Part shown: positions 1 to 26,209 of the stretch, in pieces
How the letters are laid out: the number at the start of each line of letters is the position of its first letter
Position numbering within the stretch: the first letter of the stretch is position 1
IMG/VR virus record: IMGVR_UViG_2740892051_000004
Span: 1-48,835 of that record
Source of the DNA: a virus
Taxonomy: Duplodnaviria > Heunggongvirae > Uroviricota > Caudoviricetes
Direction: 5' to 3' (one strand)
Length of the DNA stretch: 48,835 nucleotides
Made by a program: the position numbers and the translations under genes
Notes under the pieces: generated by a model
Seen by the model: the letters and a program-made list of their open reading frames with translations, nothing else
Databases searched by the model: none
What the model was told of the DNA's origin: nothing

Positions 1-228
1 ATGAGCTTATTGCCTCGGGAAAACGCACCCCAAAAAAGATATAGACTTCTGAGAATATCAGAAGTGATTAATTTGACTGGCTTACCCAAGTCAACAATTT
101 ATCTAAAGATAAAGAATGATGAATTTCCGAACCAAGTTTCTATCGGTTCTCGTTCTGTTGCATGGGTGGAGCATGAAGTTAATGAATGGATAGAGAAGAA
201 TATTCTCAATAGAAAATTAAACTCCTAA
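1..228 (+). CDS. alpA: AlpA-family DNA-binding regulator (prophage CP4-57 AlpA-like)
   Basis: 75 aa; HTH core 'RLLRISEVINLTGLPKSTIY' and C-terminal 'VAWVEHEVNEWI' match the AlpA/Vis/Xis small winged-helix pattern. Confidence 0.75.
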   Translation: MSLLPRENAPQKRYRLLRISEVINLTGLPKSTIYLKIKNDEFPNQVSIGSRSVAWVEHEVNEWIEKNILNRKLNS

Positions 229-245
229 ATTGAGGTGGCAAATAT

Positions 246-1106
246 ATGGTTGACAATGTTTTTAAGAAGAAATTGGCATCAATTAAGAACGAACATGTGT
301 CGGTGTTAGATAGTTACAAAGTAAGATCATTTAAAGAGACTCATAGCGACACGGCCTGTATTGTGCGTATTATTGAAATATATTCACTGAATAAGCTGCG
401 AGCTAAAGGTGAAAAGCTGTATTCACTTACGGGGTTAACAGTACCTGATACGGAAACTGTGGCGAATGAGATCAACCTGCTCCTGAGCCGTTATGCCCAG
501 TTGTGTCGTCAGGAAGAGGAAGAGTTATCTTTCCGGCAGCGTGAAGTGACAAATGCGGAAGTTGCATGGAAAAGCACATTCTCAAAAAACGGCGTCAGTA
601 GCATTGCTGAAGCCAAAACGAATAAAATGGGGCATGCTGAACGAGCGGATGCTGAACGGTATTACCATCTGGCTGTTTCCCGGTTGAATGAACAACATAG
701 TCGATTGAGCACGATCAAGCTTTTGCCGGGAGTACTGGCCGATGAAGGAAACTACATTGGGAAGGGAATCGATAAGCGTTTACTGAATATATTTCCTCAA
801 TCCGGCCAGATCCCTGCTGATTTTATTTCTGTATTTAATGACAGTGACGTTGTCCGTGATATTAAATTTATTACTGATGCACTCAAGTCTTTATCTGATT
901 CCGTGAGTGAAATTATTAGTCGTTGTAGCGTTCCAACTGATCGTTATGTATTAAATAACGGTGGAATGGCAAGAGCTATGGCTTACAGGGAGTACTATCG
1001 AGCAGATAATTATGTATTACGTTCAGTCGTAAGTGACCGGGATTATGTTGAGCATGTAATGAAATACAATCTGGTTACTGAGTACAAAAATAAAATCTTT
1101 TCTTAA
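246..1106 (+). CDS. hypothetical protein; possibly capsid scaffold (GpO-like by position and size only)
   Basis: 286 aa ORF directly upstream of capsid-like gene in P2 O-N order; no recognisable motif. Confidence 0.45.
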   Translation: MVDNVFKKKLASIKNEHVSVLDSYKVRSFKETHSDTACIVRIIEIYSLNKLRAKGEKLYSLTGLTVPDTETVANEINLLLSRYAQLCRQEEEELSFRQREVTNAEVAWKSTFSKNGVSSIAEAKTNKMGHAERADAERYYHLAVSRLNEQHSRLSTIKLLPGVLADEGNYIGKGIDKRLLNIFPQSGQIPADFISVFNDSDVVRDIKFITDALKSLSDSVSEIISRCSVPTDRYVLNNGGMARAMAYREYYRADNYVLRSVVSDRDYVEHVMKYNLVTEYKNKIFS

Positions 1107-1128
1107 ATACTTAAAAAGGTGAAAAACT

Positions 1129-2133
1129 ATGTATGCCTTCAAAACTGAAAGGCCGGACGCAGCACGTCGTTATCATAATAAATTCGTCACTGGCACTAAC
1201 TATCAGGAAGAATCAAACAGACGCTTTGCATTAAGCGAACCTACTGAAAATATACTGCGTACCTCAATTCTGGAATCCGGGTGGCTTATTAAAAATATTA
1301 CCCTACGTGATGTTAACGCCGTGTCAGGTAATGCCGTCAATATTGGTGCCAGTGAACTGTATACCGGACGTGTGGATGGTGGCCGTTTCCACAAAAAAAT
1401 GGCAATCAATGGTACGGAGTTCTTTCTGACAGAGACGGATACCTGCGCCCGGATCAGCTATTCCGATATGTCTCATATTTACCATACCGGCGTGCCGGAT
1501 GAGTTTGAGAAAACGGTTGAGAGCTTTTTTGCCCAGGCATATGCGCTGGACATGCTGCGGGTCGGTTTCAACGGTGTGTCGATTGCAAATACTACAAACC
1601 CGGAAATCAATAAAAAAGGCGAGGATGTCAATATTGGCTGGCATGCACTGGCGAAAGCCTACGGGAACGGAAAGCAAATCATCTCTGAGCCTGTCACTCT
1701 GGGAGAGACTGGCACCTGGAAAAATATTGATGCTCTGGCCAACCATCTGATTACAGAGCTTATTGCTGAGCAGTTTCGTGAAGATCCTCGTCTGGTTGTA
1801 CTGGTTGGGGCAGAGCTGGCAGCACATCAACGCCTGAAGTTATTTAATGCCGCAGACCGCCCGTCTGATGTGAATGCGGCACAGATGGCTACAAGTTCTG
1901 TTGCTGGCCGCTTTGCGTTTATTCCCCCGTTTATGCCGGGTAAGCGTCTGGCAGTAACGACGCTGGATAATCTGCATATTTACACTCAGGCGATAACACG
2001 CTGGTTTCGTGCTGAGTTTGATGATGAAAGCAGTGAATACGTGCATTCCTACCTGCGCAATGAAGGTTATGCACTCGGTGAACCTGAACTGTACGCGGCT
2101 GTTGATGAGTGCACCCTGACGTTTGCGGATTGA
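1129..2133 (+). CDS. putative P2-family major capsid protein (GpN-like)
   Basis: 334 aa; segments 'GFNGV...NIGW...IDALA...DPRLVVLVGAELAAH' resemble recalled P2 GpN conserved blocks; needs HMM confirmation. Confidence 0.5.
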   Translation: MYAFKTERPDAARRYHNKFVTGTNYQEESNRRFALSEPTENILRTSILESGWLIKNITLRDVNAVSGNAVNIGASELYTGRVDGGRFHKKMAINGTEFFLTETDTCARISYSDMSHIYHTGVPDEFEKTVESFFAQAYALDMLRVGFNGVSIANTTNPEINKKGEDVNIGWHALAKAYGNGKQIISEPVTLGETGTWKNIDALANHLITELIAEQFREDPRLVVLVGAELAAHQRLKLFNAADRPSDVNAAQMATSSVAGRFAFIPPFMPGKRLAVTTLDNLHIYTQAITRWFRAEFDDESSEYVHSYLRNEGYALGEPELYAAVDECTLTFAD

Positions 2134-2147
2134 CTTAGCGACAGAAA

Positions 2148-2176
2148 GACCCGCTCAGAGGCGGGTCTCGTTTACA
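2148..2176 (+). terminator. rho-independent terminator after capsid-like gene
   Basis: GACCCGC-tcagag-GCGGGTC hairpin followed by TCGTTT, 15 nt after stop codon. Confidence 0.5.
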
Positions 2177-2271
2177 GCATCAGGAAAAATGAAGAACTAT
2201 TTTTAAGCAGAGGCTTAAGCATGCCAGCGTTAATTAATCCAGGCAATGATCAGTTTTCGGTTATAAATTTC

Positions 2272-2301
2272 TTGCCTCACCAGGAATGCGCGGGATATAG
2301 T
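2272..2301 (+). promoter_or_regulatory. candidate sigma70 promoter (P4 PLE-like) upstream of immunity region
   Basis: TTGCCT-N18-TATAGT upstream of seqA. Confidence 0.3.
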
Positions 2302-2332
2302 TTAAAGGTTGCCGCAAAATCGGCAGCCGGGC

Positions 2333-2356
2333 GTAGGAACCCGTGTTATCTGAAGG
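2333..2356 (+). promoter_or_regulatory. seqA-like target of CI immunity RNA
   Basis: GTAGGAA...TCTGAAGG; both arms exactly complementary to seqB (2510..2531). Confidence 0.5.
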
Positions 2357-2469
2357 CGATACTACACGCGCTAGGCGTGTTTTTTTGTGTCGCAGCTTTG
2401 ACTCACCTAAAATTTATGGTGTGGTGGCTGATTGTATTTTTTTATTTTTTACGCCACATCATCAGAATT

Positions 2470-2545
2470 ATGGTAGTCCAGGCGGGGCAGCTTTCGGGCT
2501 GGCCGGTATCCTTCAGAGCCGGTATTCCTACCCCCGTCTGGGCTA
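2470..2545 (+). ncRNA. P4-type CI immunity RNA (C4 antisense RNA-like) containing seqB; ends approximate
   Basis: seqB core CCTTCAGA-GCCGGTA-TTCCTAC at 2510..2531 is antiparallel-complementary to seqA and seqC; sits in a leader upstream of early ORFs as in P4. Confidence 0.45.
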
Positions 2546-2557
2546 CCACCCATGAGC

Positions 2558-2599
2558 GTAGGAACTCCGGTGGTAGCGTTACCCGCTATCTGAAGGAGG
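2558..2599 (+). promoter_or_regulatory. seqC-like target overlapping ribosome-binding site of first early ORF
   Basis: GTAGGAA...TCTGAAGG repeat of seqA, ending in AGGAGG 9 nt before ATG at 2608. Confidence 0.5.
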
Positions 2600-2607
2600 T
2601 TGCCATT

Positions 2608-2811
2608 ATGGCTACAGTCCCTGCTTTATCTCACCCTGAATTTACCTTTGTCTTTCTGGCTGTCCGCCGTACAGACCGTGATGCCCGTCCACGCCCTGTG
2701 CGTGTAATCGCAGAATGCGAGCATGCTGCACGCCTTAAACTTGCCACTGAATTTATCCTGAGCTTTGCTGCCCGTATCCCTGTGAAAAGAGCCGGGGAGG
2801 TGGTTGCATGA
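2608..2811 (+). CDS. hypothetical small early protein (satellite)
   Basis: 68-codon 3' part of track ORF 2221..2811 starting at internal ATG with AGGAGG RBS; upstream part of that ORF spans the RNA region. Confidence 0.5.
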   Translation: MATVPALSHPEFTFVFLAVRRTDRDARPRPVRVIAECEHAARLKLATEFILSFAARIPVKRAGEVVA

Positions 2812-3044
2812 AATCCATGAATTTTAAGCAAGGCTGCATATTGAGTGAACAGGGGGAGAGTCGTCTGTTACGGGCGGCACTGGCCAGTGAGTTTCTTGCA
2901 GAGGTCTTGTCCGTGCCCACAGTGAATGGAGCGAGAACTGTTTCAGCGGAAGGCGCTGCGGCTTTAGTGGCCTGTATTGCCGAACAACTGGATGGCGTTG
3001 TTAAGGAAACCAGCACAATTAAGGGAGTGATGCGCGATGAATAA
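2808..3044 (+). CDS. hypothetical protein (satellite early operon)
   Basis: 78 aa ORF, 4-nt overlap with flanking ORFs (translational coupling). Confidence 0.5.
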   Translation: MKSMNFKQGCILSEQGESRLLRAALASEFLAEVLSVPTVNGARTVSAEGAAALVACIAEQLDGVVKETSTIKGVMRDE

Positions 3045-3447
3045 TAATCAAAATTTAAAGGCGCATGCTTTACGAACAGCAGTCTTACGCTACTACATTG
3101 CTGATGCATTCATTTCCTTAATGGTGCGTGTTCATAATGAACCTGTTTATATTGAAGATGGCGAACGAATAGAACTCTCCCACGAAAAAGTGGTGAGTAA
3201 TATTATTTACCATATTGAAATGCCGTGGGTGAATGAGTTTGGGGCTGATGCTGGTTGCATACTGGCCGCAGAGAAACTGGAAAAAATGCTTAAACCAGGC
3301 TTTATGTCAGAAAATATTCGCCTGTCAGTTTTTGGTGTCACAGAGATGCGTGAGGTTTACCGGGATATTATTTTCGGAGCACCTGATGGCGAACTACCCG
3401 AAGGTTTTGAATTTGTGAAGCCGGAAGGTCAGGAGGTGCTGCTGTGA
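3037..3447 (+). CDS. hypothetical protein upstream of primase (position of P4 eps/orf151)
   Basis: 136 aa ORF overlapping primase start by 4 nt. Confidence 0.55.
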   Translation: MNNNQNLKAHALRTAVLRYYIADAFISLMVRVHNEPVYIEDGERIELSHEKVVSNIIYHIEMPWVNEFGADAGCILAAEKLEKMLKPGFMSENIRLSVFGVTEMREVYRDIIFGAPDGELPEGFEFVKPEGQEVLL

Positions 3448-6131
3448 AAACACCGTCTGTATCCACGATTTCCGGAGCTGCAATTGGGCGCTGGCCTTAT
3501 ATCCTGTCAGCATTAGGTATTAAAGTACCGTCCGCAGGACATCATGGGGCTTGCCCTGCCTGTGGTGGAAAAGATCGTTTTCGACTGGACGATAAAGCGG
3601 GGCGAGGGACGTGGTTTTGTAATCAGTGCGGTCATGGCGATGGTCTTGATCTGGTTCGTCTGGTGACAGGAAGAAAGATAAAAGAAGTCGCCGGGATGGT
3701 ATCTGAGGCGCTTGCATTACCAGAAATACAGGAGAAGCCCGCATTGCCAGCCAGGAAAAAGGCCGCAGGAAAAGAAGCGGGCGCGGAGCGATATACCAGA
3801 CTCAGACAGCAGTCCTGCAATGGTGAGCCGGTCTATCTGACAAATAAGAGCTTACACGGGTATTCACTTCCCTTGCTGTCACAGCCTTTGAATCTGGCCG
3901 GAATAACATTTTCCACCGGTTCATTACTGCTGCCTTTGACGGATATTTCCGGGAATATTACTGGTGGCCAGCTTATCAATCCTGACGGGGATAAAAGTCT
4001 GCTGCCCGGTAGCCAGCTGTCTGGCGCATTCATTGCCCTGACCGATATACCCGCTGAAACACCTGAACAGGTGATTATCACTGAGGGTTTTGCCACGGCG
4101 CTTACCGTCAGTCTGCTGACTGAAGGATGGATCGTGGCGGCTGTCGCTGCCACCAATTTACTGAAGGTGACGGAGCAGATCCGAAAACGCTGGCCGGAAA
4201 CCCGGATCATTCTGGCCGGAGATAATGATCTGGCTGACGGCAAAGAAAACACCGGGCGTATTCAGGCAGAGAAAGCCGCCAAAGCGGTGGATGGCTGGGT
4301 AACGCTCCCTCCGGTACGCCATAAGGCTGACTGGGATGATTATCGGCAGGAAGTGGGGAAAGAACGGGCGAGAGATGCCTTTCGTGAAGAAATGACGCTG
4401 CATGGCAAAGGGCAGACCCGTTTACCAGAAGGGTTCCGGCTGACAAAAGAATATTTGTGGTACGACAAGCTGGTTAATAAGTCTGATGGTGATACAGAGA
4501 TACGTAATATCAAAATTTGCAGTCCGTTGCGGGTGACGGCAATCACCAGTGATGCTGATGGAAGTAATTACGGGCGTTTGCTGGAATGGGAAGATACCAA
4601 CGGAAACAGCCGTAAATGGGCAATGCCGATGGAGATGCTGGGCGGTAGCGGGGAAGAACTGCGCCGCGTTCTGCTGGTTAACGGGCTTTCTTACATCAAC
4701 ATTAACGGCATGGCCAGAGCATTCCTGATGGAATATATCTCGCTGTGTAAACCGGACAGAAAAGTAACCTGTGTGAATAAAACTGGCTGGCACGGCGGGG
4801 TTTACGTTCTCCAGGATGAAGTGATAGGGCGCGAAGCCCAGTCAGTCATCTTACAAACATCGAGTGTGCAGGGGCGTGATTTTCGTGTCAGCGGCACATC
4901 AGAGGGCTGGCGTGAAAATATAGGCCGTTATTGCATAAAGAATGCCCGTCTTGCCTTTGCGGTGAGTCTGGCATTTGCTGCCCCCCTTCTGAAACTGGTT
5001 GGTATCGGCGGTGGAGGTTATCACCTCAAAGGGGAATCCACAGACGGTAAAACCACGACGATGAAAGTGGCTGCATCAGTATGTGGTGGAACAGATTTCT
5101 GGCATACGTGGCGGGCGACGGGGAATGCCTTAGAAGGAACGGCGAGCCGCCGCAATGATGCCACGCTGATGCTGGATGAAATCCGGGAGGTTGACGGCAG
5201 GGAGGCGGGAAATATCGCTTATATGCTGGCTAACGGGCAGGGCAAAGCCAGAGCCAGAACAGATGGTTCGGTAAGGGAAACCAACCGCTGGAATCTGTTG
5301 TTTCTGTCTACCGGGGAACTGTCACTGGTAGAGCATGCGGCAAGCGCCGGGGAACGTACGTATGCCGGGGTTGAGGTCAGAATGATCCAGATCCCAAGCG
5401 ATTCGGGCAAGTATGGCGTGTTTGAAGAACTTCATGGCTTCAGTAGCGGGAAAACCCTGGCTGAGCATCTTGAGCAGCACGTAGCGCATTATCATGGTGC
5501 ACCATTCCGCGACTGGCTGTATTGCCTGACCGCTGATCTGCCGGAACTGACCAGTCAGGCGAAAGCCTTATTGAAAGAGTATACCCGAAGGCTGACGCCG
5601 GAAAATGCCGGGAATCAGGTTGGCCGGGCTGTTACCCGTTTTGCTCTGGTTGCGATGGCCGGGGAGCTGGCCACAAAAGCGGGCATCACAGGATGGCCGG
5701 AGGGAGAGGCCTTTCGTGCCGCTCAAAGCTGTCTGGCTGCATGGATGGCTGACCGGGGCCATACAGCTAATCAGGAAGATAAAGCGGCACTTGAACAGGT
5801 TCGGGACTTCATGACGCGTAATCAGTTCAGTCGGTTTGCTGACTGGAATGACGACAGGAACCGGCCTGTTTCAATGATGGGATTCAGAAAAGTCGATAAA
5901 GGAGACAACGTGACAGAGCCGGTTGTGACGTTCTACGTTCTCCCGTCAGGCTGGAAGGAGATCTGTAAGGGATTTGACTCGCGTAAGGTGGCCAGGTTGT
6001 GTGTGGACGCGGGCTGGCTGAAACCCGGTGAAGATGGCCGGACGCAAAACAGCATTCGCCTGCCAGAAATAGGGCTTAAACGTGTGTACCAGTTCAATAC
6101 ACAGGTACTGGGAAGCGCTGAACCTGAGTGA
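3444..6131 (+). CDS. P4 alpha-type primase-helicase
   Basis: 895 aa; N-terminal zinc ribbon CPACGG...CNQCGH, TOPRIM-like 'ITEGF...ILAGDNDL', Walker A 'GESTDGKTT'. Confidence 0.9.
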   Translation: MKTPSVSTISGAAIGRWPYILSALGIKVPSAGHHGACPACGGKDRFRLDDKAGRGTWFCNQCGHGDGLDLVRLVTGRKIKEVAGMVSEALALPEIQEKPALPARKKAAGKEAGAERYTRLRQQSCNGEPVYLTNKSLHGYSLPLLSQPLNLAGITFSTGSLLLPLTDISGNITGGQLINPDGDKSLLPGSQLSGAFIALTDIPAETPEQVIITEGFATALTVSLLTEGWIVAAVAATNLLKVTEQIRKRWPETRIILAGDNDLADGKENTGRIQAEKAAKAVDGWVTLPPVRHKADWDDYRQEVGKERARDAFREEMTLHGKGQTRLPEGFRLTKEYLWYDKLVNKSDGDTEIRNIKICSPLRVTAITSDADGSNYGRLLEWEDTNGNSRKWAMPMEMLGGSGEELRRVLLVNGLSYININGMARAFLMEYISLCKPDRKVTCVNKTGWHGGVYVLQDEVIGREAQSVILQTSSVQGRDFRVSGTSEGWRENIGRYCIKNARLAFAVSLAFAAPLLKLVGIGGGGYHLKGESTDGKTTTMKVAASVCGGTDFWHTWRATGNALEGTASRRNDATLMLDEIREVDGREAGNIAYMLANGQGKARARTDGSVRETNRWNLLFLSTGELSLVEHAASAGERTYAGVEVRMIQIPSDSGKYGVFEELHGFSSGKTLAEHLEQHVAHYHGAPFRDWLYCLTADLPELTSQAKALLKEYTRRLTPENAGNQVGRAVTRFALVAMAGELATKAGITGWPEGEAFRAAQSCLAAWMADRGHTANQEDKAALEQVRDFMTRNQFSRFADWNDDRNRPVSMMGFRKVDKGDNVTEPVVTFYVLPSGWKEICKGFDSRKVARLCVDAGWLKPGEDGRTQNSIRLPEIGLKRVYQFNTQVLGSAEPE

Positions 6132-6156
6132 TTATCGCGTGAGTCTTATTTTTATG

Positions 6157-6347
6157 AGGTAACACTGGTAACAGAGGTAACACCCGTTACTGATGCGGTT
6201 CTTCAGTGTTACCAGTCAAAAATACTGACTGGTAACAGAGGTAACAAAAAATGGTGTGTTACCACGCGTTACCTCTTGATTTTGCTAACTGGTAACAGAT
6301 TAAATCCTTTTAAATCAATAGCGTTACACGTGTTACCAGTGTTACAC
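6157..6347 (+). repeat. iteron array (satellite ori/crr-like)
   Basis: More than 12 copies of GGTAACA / TGTTACC in both orientations immediately after primase stop. Confidence 0.6.
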
Positions 6348-6413
6348 GTTCAGAACAAGAGGTAGGGATCCAAATCCCTTCTTCTGGCGGGCAACAGTAT
6401 AGGGCACAGAACG

Positions 6414-6686
6414 ATGAAGATGATGAGAATGTACTGCCCCACATGTCAGGCAGTAGCACGGATAGGTAAAACAAACAGGAAACACCCACAACTGTACGAT
6501 GTGTACTGCTATTGCTCTAATGTGGAGTGCGGTCACTCGTTTGTGATGAATGTTGCTTTCTCCCATTCCGTTAGTCCAAGCGCGCTGAACGGGCAGGGAA
6601 GGGTTAAAGAGCTGATTGATGCAATTCCACCCGAGGAACGGGAAAAGGCTTTAAAGTTGCTGCTGGCTGCGCAAAAGAATGGGTAA
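6414..6686 (+). CDS. Ogr/Delta-family zinc-finger late transcription activator
   Basis: 90 aa; 'CPTCQ...16 aa...CYCSNVECGH' C4 zinc finger as in P2 Ogr / P4 Delta. Confidence 0.7.
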   Translation: MKMMRMYCPTCQAVARIGKTNRKHPQLYDVYCYCSNVECGHSFVMNVAFSHSVSPSALNGQGRVKELIDAIPPEEREKALKLLLAAQKNG

Positions 6687-7365
6687 AGTATGCGTCGGGA
6701 ATGGCCGATCTGTTCCCGGAACCTGAACACAGGATTTCAGTTTATACGGTCATAAAATTATTATTTTTCAACTGGTTATCTTCTTCATGTTTCACAAACC
6801 TTCATAAAATCACACACCTAAAATTAATTATCCATTTAATATCATAGAGTTGCGTATTCAGGCCATAGATTCGACGGACAGTAAAACTGAAAAAAAATGA
6901 ATTTCTTTTCATTCTTTTCAGTTCCTGTATCGCAGTACATCTCGAGGACTGGCACGGACTGGCGGTATCGTTTGTAAAAAATCCAGGCTGAAAATTTTTA
7001 GTGATATGAAAACCGCAGGCGGGTGCGGTGTAGTGCCGTTTTGGTCTGTCGAGCGTATATTTTCCTTTTTCACGATTGCTGCATATCAAAACGAATGTGC
7101 AGATATCAGGCCGTGTCAAACCGTGAATCGTGGAGCCTAAATGCCCAAACTACGTTTGTAGACCTAGCTAGGGGAAGGTTTCCACATATACTGCTACCTA
7201 TCTTCCAGTCGCTGGTGAGGATCAAGGTAAGCTAACTGGTGAACAAGAAAAGTACTTTCGTATCTTGCGTACTCGTTTTTTTTGATTAGTATGTACAGGT
7301 AGTAACTGGATGGTGAGAATTCGTCATAACTTATCAAATTGCATGATGTTTATAGAGTATGAGTA

Positions 7366-8247
7366 ATGAGTCATAATAAAAAGGAATATGCTAAATTTTT
7401 CCGTCGCCCCATTTTTTCATCCTTAGCAAAAGGTAAGGATATTTCGGATTTATTTGGGAGTTTTGATTCTTACTGCTATGAAACACTGTTTTCAAACAAT
7501 GATAATAATGAACATGAGATTTCACTAAGGGATTTATTTACATCATTATATGATTTTTTGCGTCTGAATTATAGAAATGAATATGTTTATAAGACAGCAC
7601 TTGTCAATAAAATAATATTCGGTAAGCACAGCCCAAAAACAAGTTCGTCGTCCATAGAGTTACCAATTAAAAACTCTATAGTGGATGTTGCGGTGTTTAA
7701 TGGTACGTCTACAGCTTACGAGATTAAGACAGAGTATGATTCACCAAAAAGGTTGATTACTCAAGCCCCTGATTATTTGGATGTTTTTGATAAAGTGTAT
7801 ATAGTTACACATCCAGAGTATGCAAGTAAATATTGTGCTTTAAATCTCCCCAGAGTGGGAGTTATGGTTTTGAATAAAAAAGATCAATTGAGTGTCATTA
7901 AGGAGGCAGATTCAAATATTGATTATATTAAAAGTGACAGCTTGTTTTCAGTTCTTAGAAAGGAAGAGTTCTTAGCTATAATAGAAGATTACACTTCAAC
8001 TAAAATAAATATGCCTAACGGATTGGTTTATGAATATTGTAAAGAGATATTCATGCAGATGCCATTAAACATAGCAAATAAATACTTTATCTCTGCTATG
8101 AAAAAAAGATGTAACGATAAAGTTTTTTTGGATTATATTTATTCTCTTCCAGCATGTTTACGTGTTTTAGGTTATGCAACACCATTATCAAGAAAGCAAA
8201 AAGAATTCATCATGAATTTGATGGATGTAAAAATTAAAATTTGTTGA
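7366..8247 (+). CDS. PD-(D/E)xK nuclease-like protein, first gene of AT-rich cargo cassette (candidate defense)
   Basis: 293 aa; 'SIVDVAVFNGTSTAYEIKTEY' gives D...E-x-K catalytic signature; Lys/Asn/Ile-rich, strongly AT-rich DNA. Confidence 0.7.
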   Translation: MSHNKKEYAKFFRRPIFSSLAKGKDISDLFGSFDSYCYETLFSNNDNNEHEISLRDLFTSLYDFLRLNYRNEYVYKTALVNKIIFGKHSPKTSSSSIELPIKNSIVDVAVFNGTSTAYEIKTEYDSPKRLITQAPDYLDVFDKVYIVTHPEYASKYCALNLPRVGVMVLNKKDQLSVIKEADSNIDYIKSDSLFSVLRKEEFLAIIEDYTSTKINMPNGLVYEYCKEIFMQMPLNIANKYFISAMKKRCNDKVFLDYIYSLPACLRVLGYATPLSRKQKEFIMNLMDVKIKIC

Positions 8248-8268
8248 TATCCTCAGGAGTTGTAAGTT

Positions 8269-9219
8269 ATGTATAGCCCATATTTGTATGCGAGAAGTAC
8301 AGAGTTATTATGCCTTAGGGACCTCGTTGCGAAGGGAGTTAGCCTAAATGGTCTGCTACCAATTTTAGAACCAATTAACGTCAATACGAGAAATTTATTA
8401 ACATGTTTAAATGTTTGGAATTCTGACATAATTGTTATCCTTAATCCTTATCAGGAAGATTTTTCTTCACACAATAACGTCTTAACTTTAAATCAAAATT
8501 TATCAAGTGTATTAACAAATAAAAATAATATCATCTCTGGATATCTTATTCAGCCCAATACAACGATTAATGATATTAATAATTGGTTGAATGCTAACTT
8601 AAATAGACGAGTTGCACTTCTATATGATAATCCATCATTATCCAACTCTGATATTCAGTTGTTGGCGACAAATCAATTGATTAGTTATCATGTTGTTTTA
8701 AATAATAAAATGCTTCCTAATCAGTGCGCTCTTCTTCCTTTGTCGAAGTTAATTATTATTAGCGATAACTTTAGAAAGTTAGCAAAAAATGCTGATTATA
8801 ATGGGCCGGAACTTTTCACGCACGCACATCAATTCGTGGGACAAAATTACTTAGGATTTGGCGATTATACAATTACTGGCCAGGTACTAGATCTTGGAGG
8901 TGGTCAACCTTCTGCTGTTGCCGCACATTTGGTGTTCAAGAATTTACAAGCGAATACAGTTTGGATTCGTCATTTTGTATCAAGCAACACGCAACGAGGA
9001 AGTTCAAATGTTACTGCAAAATTTTTAGATGTTTCAGATCAAATTACAAATCTTGTTCCCCAACATCCAACCCAGTTTGGCAGCAACATTGGTCTTAACT
9101 ATTATTATTACAATAGTCAACCAACTGTAAGGCATTTCCCTGGGTTGCCAAAAAACAAACAGTATCAAATTACTCACCATATTTGTTTCATGCTGGATTT
9201 AATAGCAGGTCGTATTTAA
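8269..9219 (+). CDS. hypothetical protein, second gene of cargo cassette (partner of nuclease-like protein)
   Basis: 316 aa, 21 nt after upstream gene, same AT-rich composition; N-terminus 'MYSPYLYARSTELLCLRDL'; 3' end overlaps integrase stop by 21 bp. Confidence 0.7.
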   Translation: MYSPYLYARSTELLCLRDLVAKGVSLNGLLPILEPINVNTRNLLTCLNVWNSDIIVILNPYQEDFSSHNNVLTLNQNLSSVLTNKNNIISGYLIQPNTTINDINNWLNANLNRRVALLYDNPSLSNSDIQLLATNQLISYHVVLNNKMLPNQCALLPLSKLIIISDNFRKLAKNADYNGPELFTHAHQFVGQNYLGFGDYTITGQVLDLGGGQPSAVAAHLVFKNLQANTVWIRHFVSSNTQRGSSNVTAKFLDVSDQITNLVPQHPTQFGSNIGLNYYYYNSQPTVRHFPGLPKNKQYQITHHICFMLDLIAGRI

Positions 9220-10374
9220 TAAGCTAGCGTACCATTCCATCATTACTTGTCGATCTTTAATATATTGCGCATGATTGTAAGTACCTCGAATAGAGTTCTT
9301 ATCAACATGCGCAAGCTGCATTTCAATCCAGGCACTTTCAAACCCATGCTCATGCAAGATGGTGCTCATGGTATGCCTGAAACCGTGACCCGTTAACCGA
9401 CCGTGATAACCCAGTAGTTTTATCACTTTGTTGATGCTGGCTTCGCTCATTGGTTTACTGACGTCATTCCGGCCAGGGAAAACGAGGCTGTAATTCCCTG
9501 TTATTTCTTGCAGCTTTTTCAGGATATTGATCGCCTGAGTTGATAACGGAACCAGATGGGGGCGGCGTTTCTTCATCCGTTCTTTGGGGATCTCCCATAA
9601 GGCATTATCTAAATCAAACTCAGCCCATTCCGCTGCACGTAGTTCAATTGTTCGCACGCCTGTTAGCATCAACAGCTGCGTGGCGTATTTGGTAACTAAA
9701 CTGCCCTGATAGTTATCCAGAGCATTAACGAACTCGGGCAACTCGCTTTCAGTCAGGAACGGGAAGTGTTGGGTTTTAGGTTTGTTGAGTGCGATAGCTA
9801 AATCGGGTGCAAAATTATACTTTGCTCTACCAGTGGCAACAGCATAACGAAGCACTTCACCACAGCGGCGGCGGATCTTACTGGTTTGCTCTAGCGCACC
9901 TCTTTTCTCTATTTTTTGCAGGACGGTTAGCAGTTCTAATGGTTCAATCTGCTCAATTGGGCGCTGGCCGATAAAAGGAAAAATATCCTTTTCCATACAA
10001 TTGAGAACCTCTTTTGCATAACCCTCTGACCAGGTGGCTTTTTTCGATGAGTGCCATTCTCTGGCCACAGACTCAAAGCTGTTCTCATGCGCGAACTGCA
10101 AAGCAATCTTATCTGCTTTTCTGGCTTCACTTGGGTTTATCCCGTTGGCTAACATCGAACGCGCTTCATCACGTTTGGTACGTGCCTGTGCCAACGACAC
10201 ATCGCCATATACGCCAAAGGAAATCATCTTAGGCTTACCTGCAAAGCGATAGCGAAAACGCCAGCCTTTACTGCCCGCTGTGTCGATCAGGAGTGATAGC
10301 CCCATACCATCGTTAAGCGTATAGGGTTTGTCCTTCGGTTTTGCTCTTTTTATTTGGATGTCAGATAGCAGCAT
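9199..10374 (-). CDS. int: tyrosine integrase, P4 family with arm-type N-terminal domain
   Basis: Start set at internal Met 'MLLSDIQIKRAKPK'; C-terminal catalytic 'HGFRHT...LAHVD...RGTYNHAQY'. Confidence 0.9.
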   Translation of the reverse strand: MLLSDIQIKRAKPKDKPYTLNDGMGLSLLIDTAGSKGWRFRYRFAGKPKMISFGVYGDVSLAQARTKRDEARSMLANGINPSEARKADKIALQFAHENSFESVAREWHSSKKATWSEGYAKEVLNCMEKDIFPFIGQRPIEQIEPLELLTVLQKIEKRGALEQTSKIRRRCGEVLRYAVATGRAKYNFAPDLAIALNKPKTQHFPFLTESELPEFVNALDNYQGSLVTKYATQLLMLTGVRTIELRAAEWAEFDLDNALWEIPKERMKKRRPHLVPLSTQAINILKKLQEITGNYSLVFPGRNDVSKPMSEASINKVIKLLGYHGRLTGHGFRHTMSTILHEHGFESAWIEMQLAHVDKNSIRGTYNHAQYIKDRQVMMEWYASLLNTTCY

Positions 10375-10622
10375 GTGTATAGAAAAAAGATCGAACTCAG
10401 TTATACACAATGTTATACGCAAAGATGTATAGATTCCATTAGAAATAATGGTACTTTGCTGGACGAGTATAAGGAGATGATATCAGTTAAAACAGTGAGT
10501 TATGGAATTAATTGAACTTAGTGAGAAGTGTTCATGGTGTCCCCTGCAGACATCTACTTGGCGCGGCAGGGGATTGATTGGAATGGTGTTTTTTAGATGT
10601 GAAAAATATTTTACCCGCTATT

Positions 10623-10823
10623 TTACCCATTGGCGCGGCTTAAGAGCTTATTTTTGAATTCACAATGGTCACGATATAACCATCTTGCTCGCCCGTGGAT
10701 AACTTTGGCTTTTGGCAGGTCGCCGGACTTAATCCGGTCATAGATGAAGGTCTTACCGAAGCCAGTATCAGCCATGATGAATTTCAAATCAACCAGTGAA
10801 TCAGGCTGTAGTTCGTGTTGCAT
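10623..10823 (-). CDS. AlpA-family excisionase-like protein upstream of integrase
   Basis: 66 aa; 'LKFIMADTGFGKTFIYDRIKSGDLP...HGRARWLYRDHCEF' AlpA/Xis pattern; cotranscribed orientation with int. Confidence 0.7.
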   Translation of the reverse strand: MQHELQPDSLVDLKFIMADTGFGKTFIYDRIKSGDLPKAKVIHGRARWLYRDHCEFKNKLLSRANG

Positions 10824-26053: not shown

Positions 26054-26128
26054 GGGTCAGTCGTATAAAGGTCATTACGGAAGGCTGTTAACCTTCTTAT
26101 CGTGGTTCGAGTCCACGCTGTCCCGCCA
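26054..26128 (+). tRNA. tRNA, anticodon GTT (Asn), hand-folded
   Basis: Acceptor stem with one mismatch, D-loop GG, anticodon loop CTGTTAA, T-arm CGTGG-TTCGAGT-CCACG, 3' CCA encoded. Confidence 0.55.
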
Positions 26129-26133
26129 AACAT

Positions 26134-26209
26134 GCTGGTTTAGCTCCAATGGTAGAGCAGTCGCCTTGTAAGCGAATGGGTAGCGGTTCAAGTCCGTTAA
26201 CCAGCACCA
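26134..26209 (+). tRNA. tRNA-Thr (anticodon TGT), hand-folded
   Basis: Acceptor GCTGGTT/AACCAGC, D-arm GCTC-CAATGGT-AGAGC, anticodon loop CTTGTAA, T-loop TTCAAGT, CCA encoded. Confidence 0.65.

Follow-up and report, generated by a model that had tools for sequence, protein, structure and literature searches.

Layout and protein families of the sce7726/sce7725 locus

The DNA analysed here (hereafter the window) is a stretch of 48,835 nucleotides deposited in IMG/VR as the viral record IMGVR_UViG_2740892051_000004, and its first part carries what its gene content identifies as a P4-like phage satellite of Escherichia coli. In this satellite two adjacent genes, referred to here as sce7726 (product, protein 1) and sce7725 (product, protein 2) after the NCBIfam families to which the products belong, are situated between a gene for an Ogr/Delta-like activator and the integrase gene, int. 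An initial annotation, made from the sequence alone, had described two co-directional genes 21 nt apart in this position, and their coordinates were confirmed (Table 1). The AT-richness that it ascribed to this cargo was also found: the G+C content (GC) is 0.306 for the sce7726 gene and 0.340 for the sce7725 gene, and 0.27 at the third codon position (GC3) of both, as compared with 0.484 in the backbone of the satellite and 0.46 in int. Its description of about 650 bp of AT-rich non-coding DNA upstream stands in part, since a gap of 679 bp (6687-7365) indeed separates the Ogr/Delta gene from sce7726, but the gap is made of two segments with different histories, and its GC of 0.39-0.40 is milder than that of the cargo genes. 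The segment 6687-7046 is conserved satellite backbone including a cos-like region, and the cargo part of the gap is only 7047-7365, which presumably holds the promoter and the 5′ untranslated region of the pair; a consensus scan of this segment for a sigma-70 promoter gave no convincing candidate, and we infer the promoter. An AGGAG Shine-Dalgarno sequence, read at 8255-8259, is placed 9 nt ahead of the ATG of sce7725, and together with the 21-nt spacer it agrees with the two genes being co-transcribed and translationally coupled. At the other end, the 3′ end of sce7725 overlaps the 3′ end of int convergently by 21 nt (9199-9219), the integrase open reading frame (ORF) spanning 9199-10374 or 9199-10422 on the minus strand, with the RefSeq start at 10374.

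Table 1. Features of the sce7726/sce7725 locus (positions in the window)
Feature	Position	Strand	Description
Ogr/Delta-like zinc-finger activator gene	6414-6686	+	last backbone gene ahead of the hotspot; Pfam Ogr_Delta, 5.1e-14; the SK1144 RefSeq annotation agrees
Conserved non-coding backbone with putative cos site	6886-7046		includes hairpin ACCGCAGGCGGGTGCGGT at 7012-7029
Cargo-specific upstream region	7047-7365	+	319 bp; missing from the PARIS-carrying sister satellite; GC 0.404
sce7726 ORF (protein 1)	7366-8247	+	293 aa; putative effector
Spacer between sce7726 and sce7725	8248-8268	+	21 nt
sce7725 ORF (protein 2)	8269-9219	+	316 aa; putative sensor/regulator, possibly enzyme
int 3′ end travelling with the swapped module	9199-9262	-	homology to the PARIS-carrying satellite restarts only at 9263
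Tyrosine integrase, backbone part	9263-10422	-	Pfam Arm-DNA-bind_3, Phage_int_M, Phage_integrase

The initial annotation had pointed tentatively to the sce7725/sce7726 type of gene pair, and this turned out to be exactly correct, both proteins matching the respective NCBIfam families over the full length. Protein 1 scored 175.6 bits against sce7726_fam (E 9.6e-52, positions 1-183 of the 184 in the hidden Markov model, HMM) and protein 2 scored 242.2 bits against sce7725_fam (E 1.1e-71, HMM positions 1-311 of 312), the curated NCBIfam cutoffs for the whole-protein HMM score being 70 bits for sce7726 and 60 bits for sce7725. Since these matches are far above the cutoffs, both ORFs are genuine genes and not chance reading frames. 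Both proteins are full-length members, and no difference from the NCBIfam pair was found at the sequence level.

Protein 1 also matched the PADLOC model 'cll' (E 1.2e-18), which represents cII of phage P4, as P4 cII matches this model at 3e-113. P4 cII itself falls in sce7726_fam (E 2.5e-44), and RefSeq annotates P4 cII likewise. A Pfam search of protein 1 itself gave no match, and precomputed Pfam assignments to PF26915, a family named Phage_P4_cII, were present on all protein 1 homologues. In an alignment of 40 homologues, E72, E98, D107, E119, K121 and Q133 were invariant, and E98, D107, E119, K121 and Q133 were kept in all nine loci compared, P4 cII included. The initial annotation had noted a D...ExK signature in protein 1, and D107, E119 and K121 are the residues concerned. 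In the AlphaFold model of protein 1 (predicted local distance difference test score, pLDDT, 93) the conserved residues are located on the canonical β-strands of a PD-(D/E)xK fold, with the αβββαβ core, the acidic residue on β2 and the (D/E)xK motif on β3. By fold comparison the model resembles PD-(D/E)xK nucleases, the closest solved fold being 3dnx. The nuclease core covers about residues 70-180, followed by a helical C-terminal domain and preceded by a helical N-terminal extension of 69 aa, which is absent from P4 cII. The assignment of protein 1 to the PD-(D/E)xK nucleases is thus sound, and from the model and the alignment it is predicted to be catalytically competent.

For protein 2, Pfam gave only noise (NAD_synthase, E 0.11) and PADLOC gave no match. 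The AlphaFold model (pLDDT 95) shows a TIM-barrel-like fold followed by a C-terminal β-hairpin and a helical part. Among 43 homologues a total of 16 residues are invariant, including E12, E34, N59, D199, H220, H235, S238, K297 and H304, and D176 and H303 are nearly so; this pattern of invariant polar residues looks like an active or ligand-binding site rather than a scaffold. Searches of PDB sequences with the single proteins and with the sce7725, sce7726 and β profiles gave no significant relatives, and the BFVD search returned one uncharacterised Gordonia phage protein, the rest being noise.

A relationship of protein 2 to the β protein of P4 came out of profile comparison. Compared directly by BLASTP, protein 2 and P4 β gave no significant match and shared only an N-terminal YxPxLxxRSxE motif, and therefore the relationship is visible to profile methods only. 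Weak matches to the Pfam family Beta_protein were obtained for 13 of the 43 sce7725 members, and no other Pfam family was matched by more than one member. When the sce7725 and β alignments were compared profile to profile by hhalign, they aligned over 249 columns with 88% probability (E 3.2e-6), with the N-terminal motif and the GDY/GDH motif in register. The sce7725 family is a probable remote homologue of P4 β.

The association of the two genes was then found to extend far beyond this satellite. In nine of nine other diverse loci the sce7726 (PF26915) gene adjoins sce7725, co-directionally in eight and convergently in one, with spacers of 4-48 nt in six of the other co-directional loci. Between loci, the identity of the nuclease tracks that of its partner with r = 0.91, a value which rests on pairwise comparisons among nine loci, including P4 and Methylibium, and hence on pairs that are not independent. 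At the level of sequence comparison, sce7726 and sce7725 are obligately paired and have diverged as one unit.

Exchange with PARIS in the hotspot of a P4-like satellite

The satellite carries the hallmarks of P4-like elements, that is, a C4/CI antisense RNA, isrK, an AlpA regulator, an Ash-family protein, the Ogr/Delta protein and the integrase, together with an α-like primase of Zn-ribbon/Toprim/DUF927 architecture. In other E. coli strains it is integrated at tRNA-Arg beside yfdC. The same satellite is present at the same tRNA-Arg/yfdC site in strain MB06172, with flanks that are 93-94% identical, and there AriA/AriB (PARIS) is found in place of sce7726/sce7725. Because the homology to the MB06172 satellite breaks at 7046 and returns at 9263, the exchangeable module is 7047-9262, which runs from the 319 bp upstream through the two genes into int, of which it includes the final 64 nt. 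The movement of these 64 nt with the cargo places a recombination breakpoint inside int.

On the left of the module, 6886-7033 is 72-75% identical to the outermost right ends of two linear P2-like phage genomes, ESSI-2 and ESSI2_ev015. Judging from this match, the region is probably the cos site of the satellite, and the similarity suggests that it mimics an ESSI-2-type helper rather than P2; BLAST of the non-coding region against the P4/P2 cos junction gave no similarity. The published P4 defence hotspot lies adjacent to cos (PMC9122126). With the cos-proximal backbone on one side, int on the other and PARIS in its place in the related satellite, the pair agrees with the statement of the initial annotation that P4-like satellites carry variable cargo next to int. 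It is swappable cargo, and the slot that it occupies is the defence hotspot next to cos in a P4-like satellite.

The location beside a cos-like region might also be taken to indicate a role in the life cycle of the satellite or in host repair, such as processing of cos DNA, interference with the helper or an MmcB-like repair nuclease. The closest solved fold, 3dnx, is in line with such a role, as is the HHpred result in PMC9122126, where P4 cII is connected with the MmcB-like family of Pfam. We consider this explanation very unlikely. The module is dispensable for the satellite, because the isogenic satellite has PARIS instead, and the pair is met also well away from satellites, with unrelated defence genes as neighbours, on chromosomes and plasmids across many phyla.

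Several other features of the element were observed. Rfam located isrK at 2308-2385 and the C4 antisense RNA at 2466-2553, constituting a P4-type CI RNA immunity region, and this region is nested inside an ORF annotated as an Icd-like/Ash protein. The satellite also encodes a homologue of the P2-family major capsid protein (1129-2133, Pfam 9.5e-67), which is atypical for P4, and a 286-aa protein within 246-2133 without family match. A Pfam scan of the eight backbone ORFs (1-6686) detected no Psu or Sid domain, which is likewise atypical for P4; given the lack of a Pfam-detectable Psu, surveys anchored on psu and int may miss this abundant cargo. On the right side, homology to the strains carrying only the satellite stops 14 nt into the 3′ end of tRNA-Arg (10535-10549), and no intact tRNA-Arg is present downstream of 10549 within the window. 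What follows looks like a second element, of prophage type, in tandem at the same attachment (att) site, occupying 10550-48835; it opens with a 66-aa ORF (10623-10823, no Pfam match) and contains tRNA-Asn and tRNA-Thr at 26054-26209. The window matches IMG/VR contigs of about 50 kb, classified as viral, in which satellite and prophage are merged.

Relation to known defence systems and proposed function

The initial annotation had found no validated system to which the pair corresponds. This does not hold for the single components, as protein 1 belongs to the P4 cII family and protein 2 is a remote β relative, but it does hold for the combination, since the pair without gop is unnamed in PADLOC v2. 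The gop-β-cII system of P4, named gop_beta_cll in PADLOC and Rst_gop_beta_cii in a 2026 preprint, protects against λ and P1 (Rousset et al., PMC9122126), and phage orf184 triggers it, leading to cell death (Silas et al.). In P4, gop and β, with cII convergent, are located between cos and int. The pair resembles this system in its position in the same hotspot of P4-like satellites, in the cII-type nuclease of the same family with identical catalytic residues, in the partner with the N-terminal YxPxLxxRxxE and G(D)Y/H motifs of a remote β homologue, and in the co-divergence of nuclease and partner as a unit over both branches. It differs in the gene order, which is cII-like and then β-like in co-directional arrangement 21 nt apart, in the N-terminal extension of protein 1, and in the partner, which is missed by the PADLOC beta model and by Pfam Beta_protein (PF14350). 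The identity is about 23% overall between protein 1 and cII, and about 18% between protein 2 and β.

We also searched for gop. No match was found among the small ORFs of 6687-7365, which straddle the junction of backbone and cargo, nor in the minus-strand ORF 8253-8429, which lies over the spacer and the first part of sce7725; in Methylibium, which served as a positive control, the small ORF ahead of β matched gop at 3.5e-9. Among the three components of gop-β-cII, therefore, only cII was found at this locus, the β component being absent as judged by models and the gop component being absent as well.

A second relative is PD-λ-2 (Vassallo et al. 2022), which includes the β-family protein PD-λ-2C. 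P4 β (P4 651-1718) matched the PADLOC PD-Lambda-2_C models at 8e-14 and 1.7e-8, and this match ties two separately named defence systems together through a common β-family component. Instead of a nuclease, PD-λ-2 has a HigB-like protein and an Xre-peptidase as its remaining components; the PADLOC PD-Lambda-2 models gave no match to either of our two proteins, and no further genes are present in the module. PD-λ-2C is needed for defence and dispensable for neutralisation of the toxin (PMC9519451), and this is the role proposed below for sce7725. In addition, a P4 locus with PD-λ-2C, PD-λ-2B and cII was reported to reduce λ plaques about 1000-fold (10.64898/2026.02.27.708500). PARIS, in the same slot of the sister satellite, is likewise a two-gene module that pairs a nuclease with a second protein, AriB being described as a TOPRIM nuclease in PMC11464382, but its proteins are unrelated to those of the pair, PARIS consisting of an ABC ATPase and a DUF4435/TOPRIM protein. 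By sequence criteria, the pair falls outside gop-β-cII as defined and outside PD-λ-2, and it is probably a two-gene cousin of a known anti-phage system rather than a wholly new one.

We propose that 7047-9262 is a self-contained two-gene anti-phage module, a gop-less relative of P4 gop-β-cII in which a nuclease effector is combined with a β-like sensor or licenser, and we hold this proposal with moderate confidence. This grade combines two judgements, namely that the pair defends against phage, which we consider quite likely, and the roles assigned to the two proteins, in which our confidence is lower. In the proposed mechanism, sce7726 would be an active PD-(D/E)xK DNA nuclease and would serve as the effector, for which it is the obvious candidate because the active site is intact throughout the family. 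sce7725 would be made together with the nuclease, would be needed for defence, and would sense infection or license the nuclease instead of being a simple antidote. Upon infection the nuclease would be released onto DNA, and either the invading genome would be destroyed or the infection would be aborted. As P4 β matches PD-Lambda-2_C, the β-family appears to work with unrelated effectors, and with such a variety of partners a sensor or licensing role would suit this family better than that of a dedicated antidote.

The separation of the two genes in nature bears directly on this mechanism and on two alternatives to it. In 3 of the 422 E. coli genomes that carry the locus (see below), IS1 splits sce7725 after about codon 143, as in the THO-015 locus (2670-4397), and sce7726 stays identical (WP_000019149.1), genomes and not insertion events being counted here. 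This indicates that sce7726 is tolerated without its partner at native expression. If the pair were a toxin-antitoxin addiction module stabilising the satellite, sce7726 would be a constitutively toxic nuclease and sce7725 its antitoxin, without immune role, and an unharmed nuclease gene next to a truncated sce7725 argues against this. Such a module has some precedent in P4, where toxicity of Gop in the absence of β was reported and the name 'P4 phage antitoxin' has been given to β, and the tight two-gene operon with its short spacer does resemble toxin-antitoxin loci. The β homologue PD-λ-2C is, however, the component unneeded for toxin neutralisation, as cited above, and sce7725, with 316 aa and many invariant polar residues, is unlike typical small antitoxins, so that we regard an addiction module as unlikely. 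The same IS1 insertions speak against an arrangement of restriction-modification type, in which the TIM-barrel protein sce7725 would be an enzyme that modifies self DNA or the nucleotide pool, and sce7726 would cut DNA that is unmodified or differently modified: with a protective modification, loss of sce7725 should not leave the nuclease tolerated. We judge this arrangement to be improbable.

Several points weigh against the proposed defence module. No phage-challenge data for the sce7726/sce7725 pair were found in open-access text. In P4 it is Gop that is the suspected toxin, and the assignment of the effector role to a cII-like protein is an extrapolation here. Low expression or suppressor mutations could account for the tolerance of the IS1-split genomes. 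So many invariant polar residues in sce7725 suggest an enzyme and are left unexplained by a sensor model. The link between sce7725 and β is remote, with an hhalign probability of 88% and not above 95%, and the PADLOC beta and PD-Lambda-2_C models miss protein 2. The neighbourhoods described below are a small, unsystematic sample without control, and the identity of at least 99% over 422 genomes stems from clonal descent and cannot count as separate evidence for selection.

With respect to earlier literature, open-access text yielded no report testing the two-gene sce7726+sce7725 form, and searches of that literature by accession and by family identifier for tests of the pair returned nothing. 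Nor was any paper found there that assigns a function to the names sce7725 and sce7726, the mentions being annotation lists. Neither accession of the pair occurs in the accessible part of the supplements of PMC9122126, and the DNA of the pair is absent from the synthesised fragments of 10.64898/2026.02.27.708500.

Distribution of the pair and wider meaning

An exhaustive profile search with sce7725 gave about 1,492 clusters at 50% identity (E <= 1e-3), 760 of them with E <= 1e-30. Family members were found on plasmids of Rhizobiales, Moraxella, Ralstonia and Enterococcus, and members are annotated in Leptospira. A locus search with a narrow sce alignment returned mostly identical E. coli copies. 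Within E. coli, the 2.2-kb region is at least 99% identical in 422 of 5,426 complete genomes, always chromosomal and in single copy, and RefSeq gives the names sce7726 and sce7725 to both proteins in these 422 genomes; among the carriers is at least one record with the name O25b:H4-ST131. Mass spectrometry of clinical E. coli picked up a 'sce7725 family protein' (PMC8203672), which is consistent with constitutive expression.

As to the neighbourhoods, the pair is located between type I restriction-modification (R-M) plus Schlafen genes and Hachiman in Paraburkholderia, beside HipA and Bro-N in Pseudomonas, and beside a Schlafen-type helicase and BglII R-M on a metagenomic contig. On one IMG/VR contig it stands beside helicase+DUF2290, a combination validated against T7 by Rousset. 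In Providencia the pair occupies the same slot between Ogr/Delta and int, and in Acidobacterium the two genes are convergent with a 9-nt overlap. An IMG/VR contig of a P2-like phage (L029, 1-4983) carries a 36%-identical pair beside Phage_portal and gpP-like terminase genes, the place near cos in which P2-like phages have variable cargo next to gpQ. In a further metagenomic locus (L011, 5940-6911) a gene for a RES-domain protein begins 4 nt downstream of sce7725, and this locus may represent a variant of three genes in which a toxin has joined the pair, in analogy to gop in P4. One tblastn match, 'Listeria phage LM 4-14-1' (OR848224.1), was rejected as a case of phage carriage: the record is marked UNVERIFIED and encodes housekeeping functions (dihydroorotate oxidase, amidase, parts of an ABC transporter and guanylate kinase), as expected for a bacterial chromosomal contig.

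Part of this picture is known: RefSeq uses the names sce7725 and sce7726, and both Pfam and PADLOC already connect cII with sce7726. A broader reading, which we offer tentatively and consider doubtful as a whole, is that the β/sce7725 TIM-barrel proteins form a widespread new class of infection sensor or enzyme with interchangeable effectors (Gop, HigB/Xre-peptidase, cII nuclease), that the β-like and cII-like core is ancestral and gop a later addition, and that a pocket of invariant acidic, His and Lys residues licenses the nuclease. On this reading the pocket would bind or convert a small molecule, derived from or induced by the phage, or a nucleic-acid feature. We know of no defence system for which such licensing chemistry has been described.

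In practical terms, PADLOC v2 flags only an orphan cII at this locus, and the module would therefore be missed or called incomplete. If active, it would be a common barrier to phages that are used or proposed against the carrier strains. As far as the sequence comparisons go, the conserved and co-diverging unit across bacteria is the β-like and cII-like pair, which exists without Gop. Such conservation points to the nuclease as the central effector and to the β-like protein as the central sensor or regulator, Gop being secondary. The gop-less pair thus reframes the gop-β-cII system of P4, for which the two-gene version would offer a tractable entry point.

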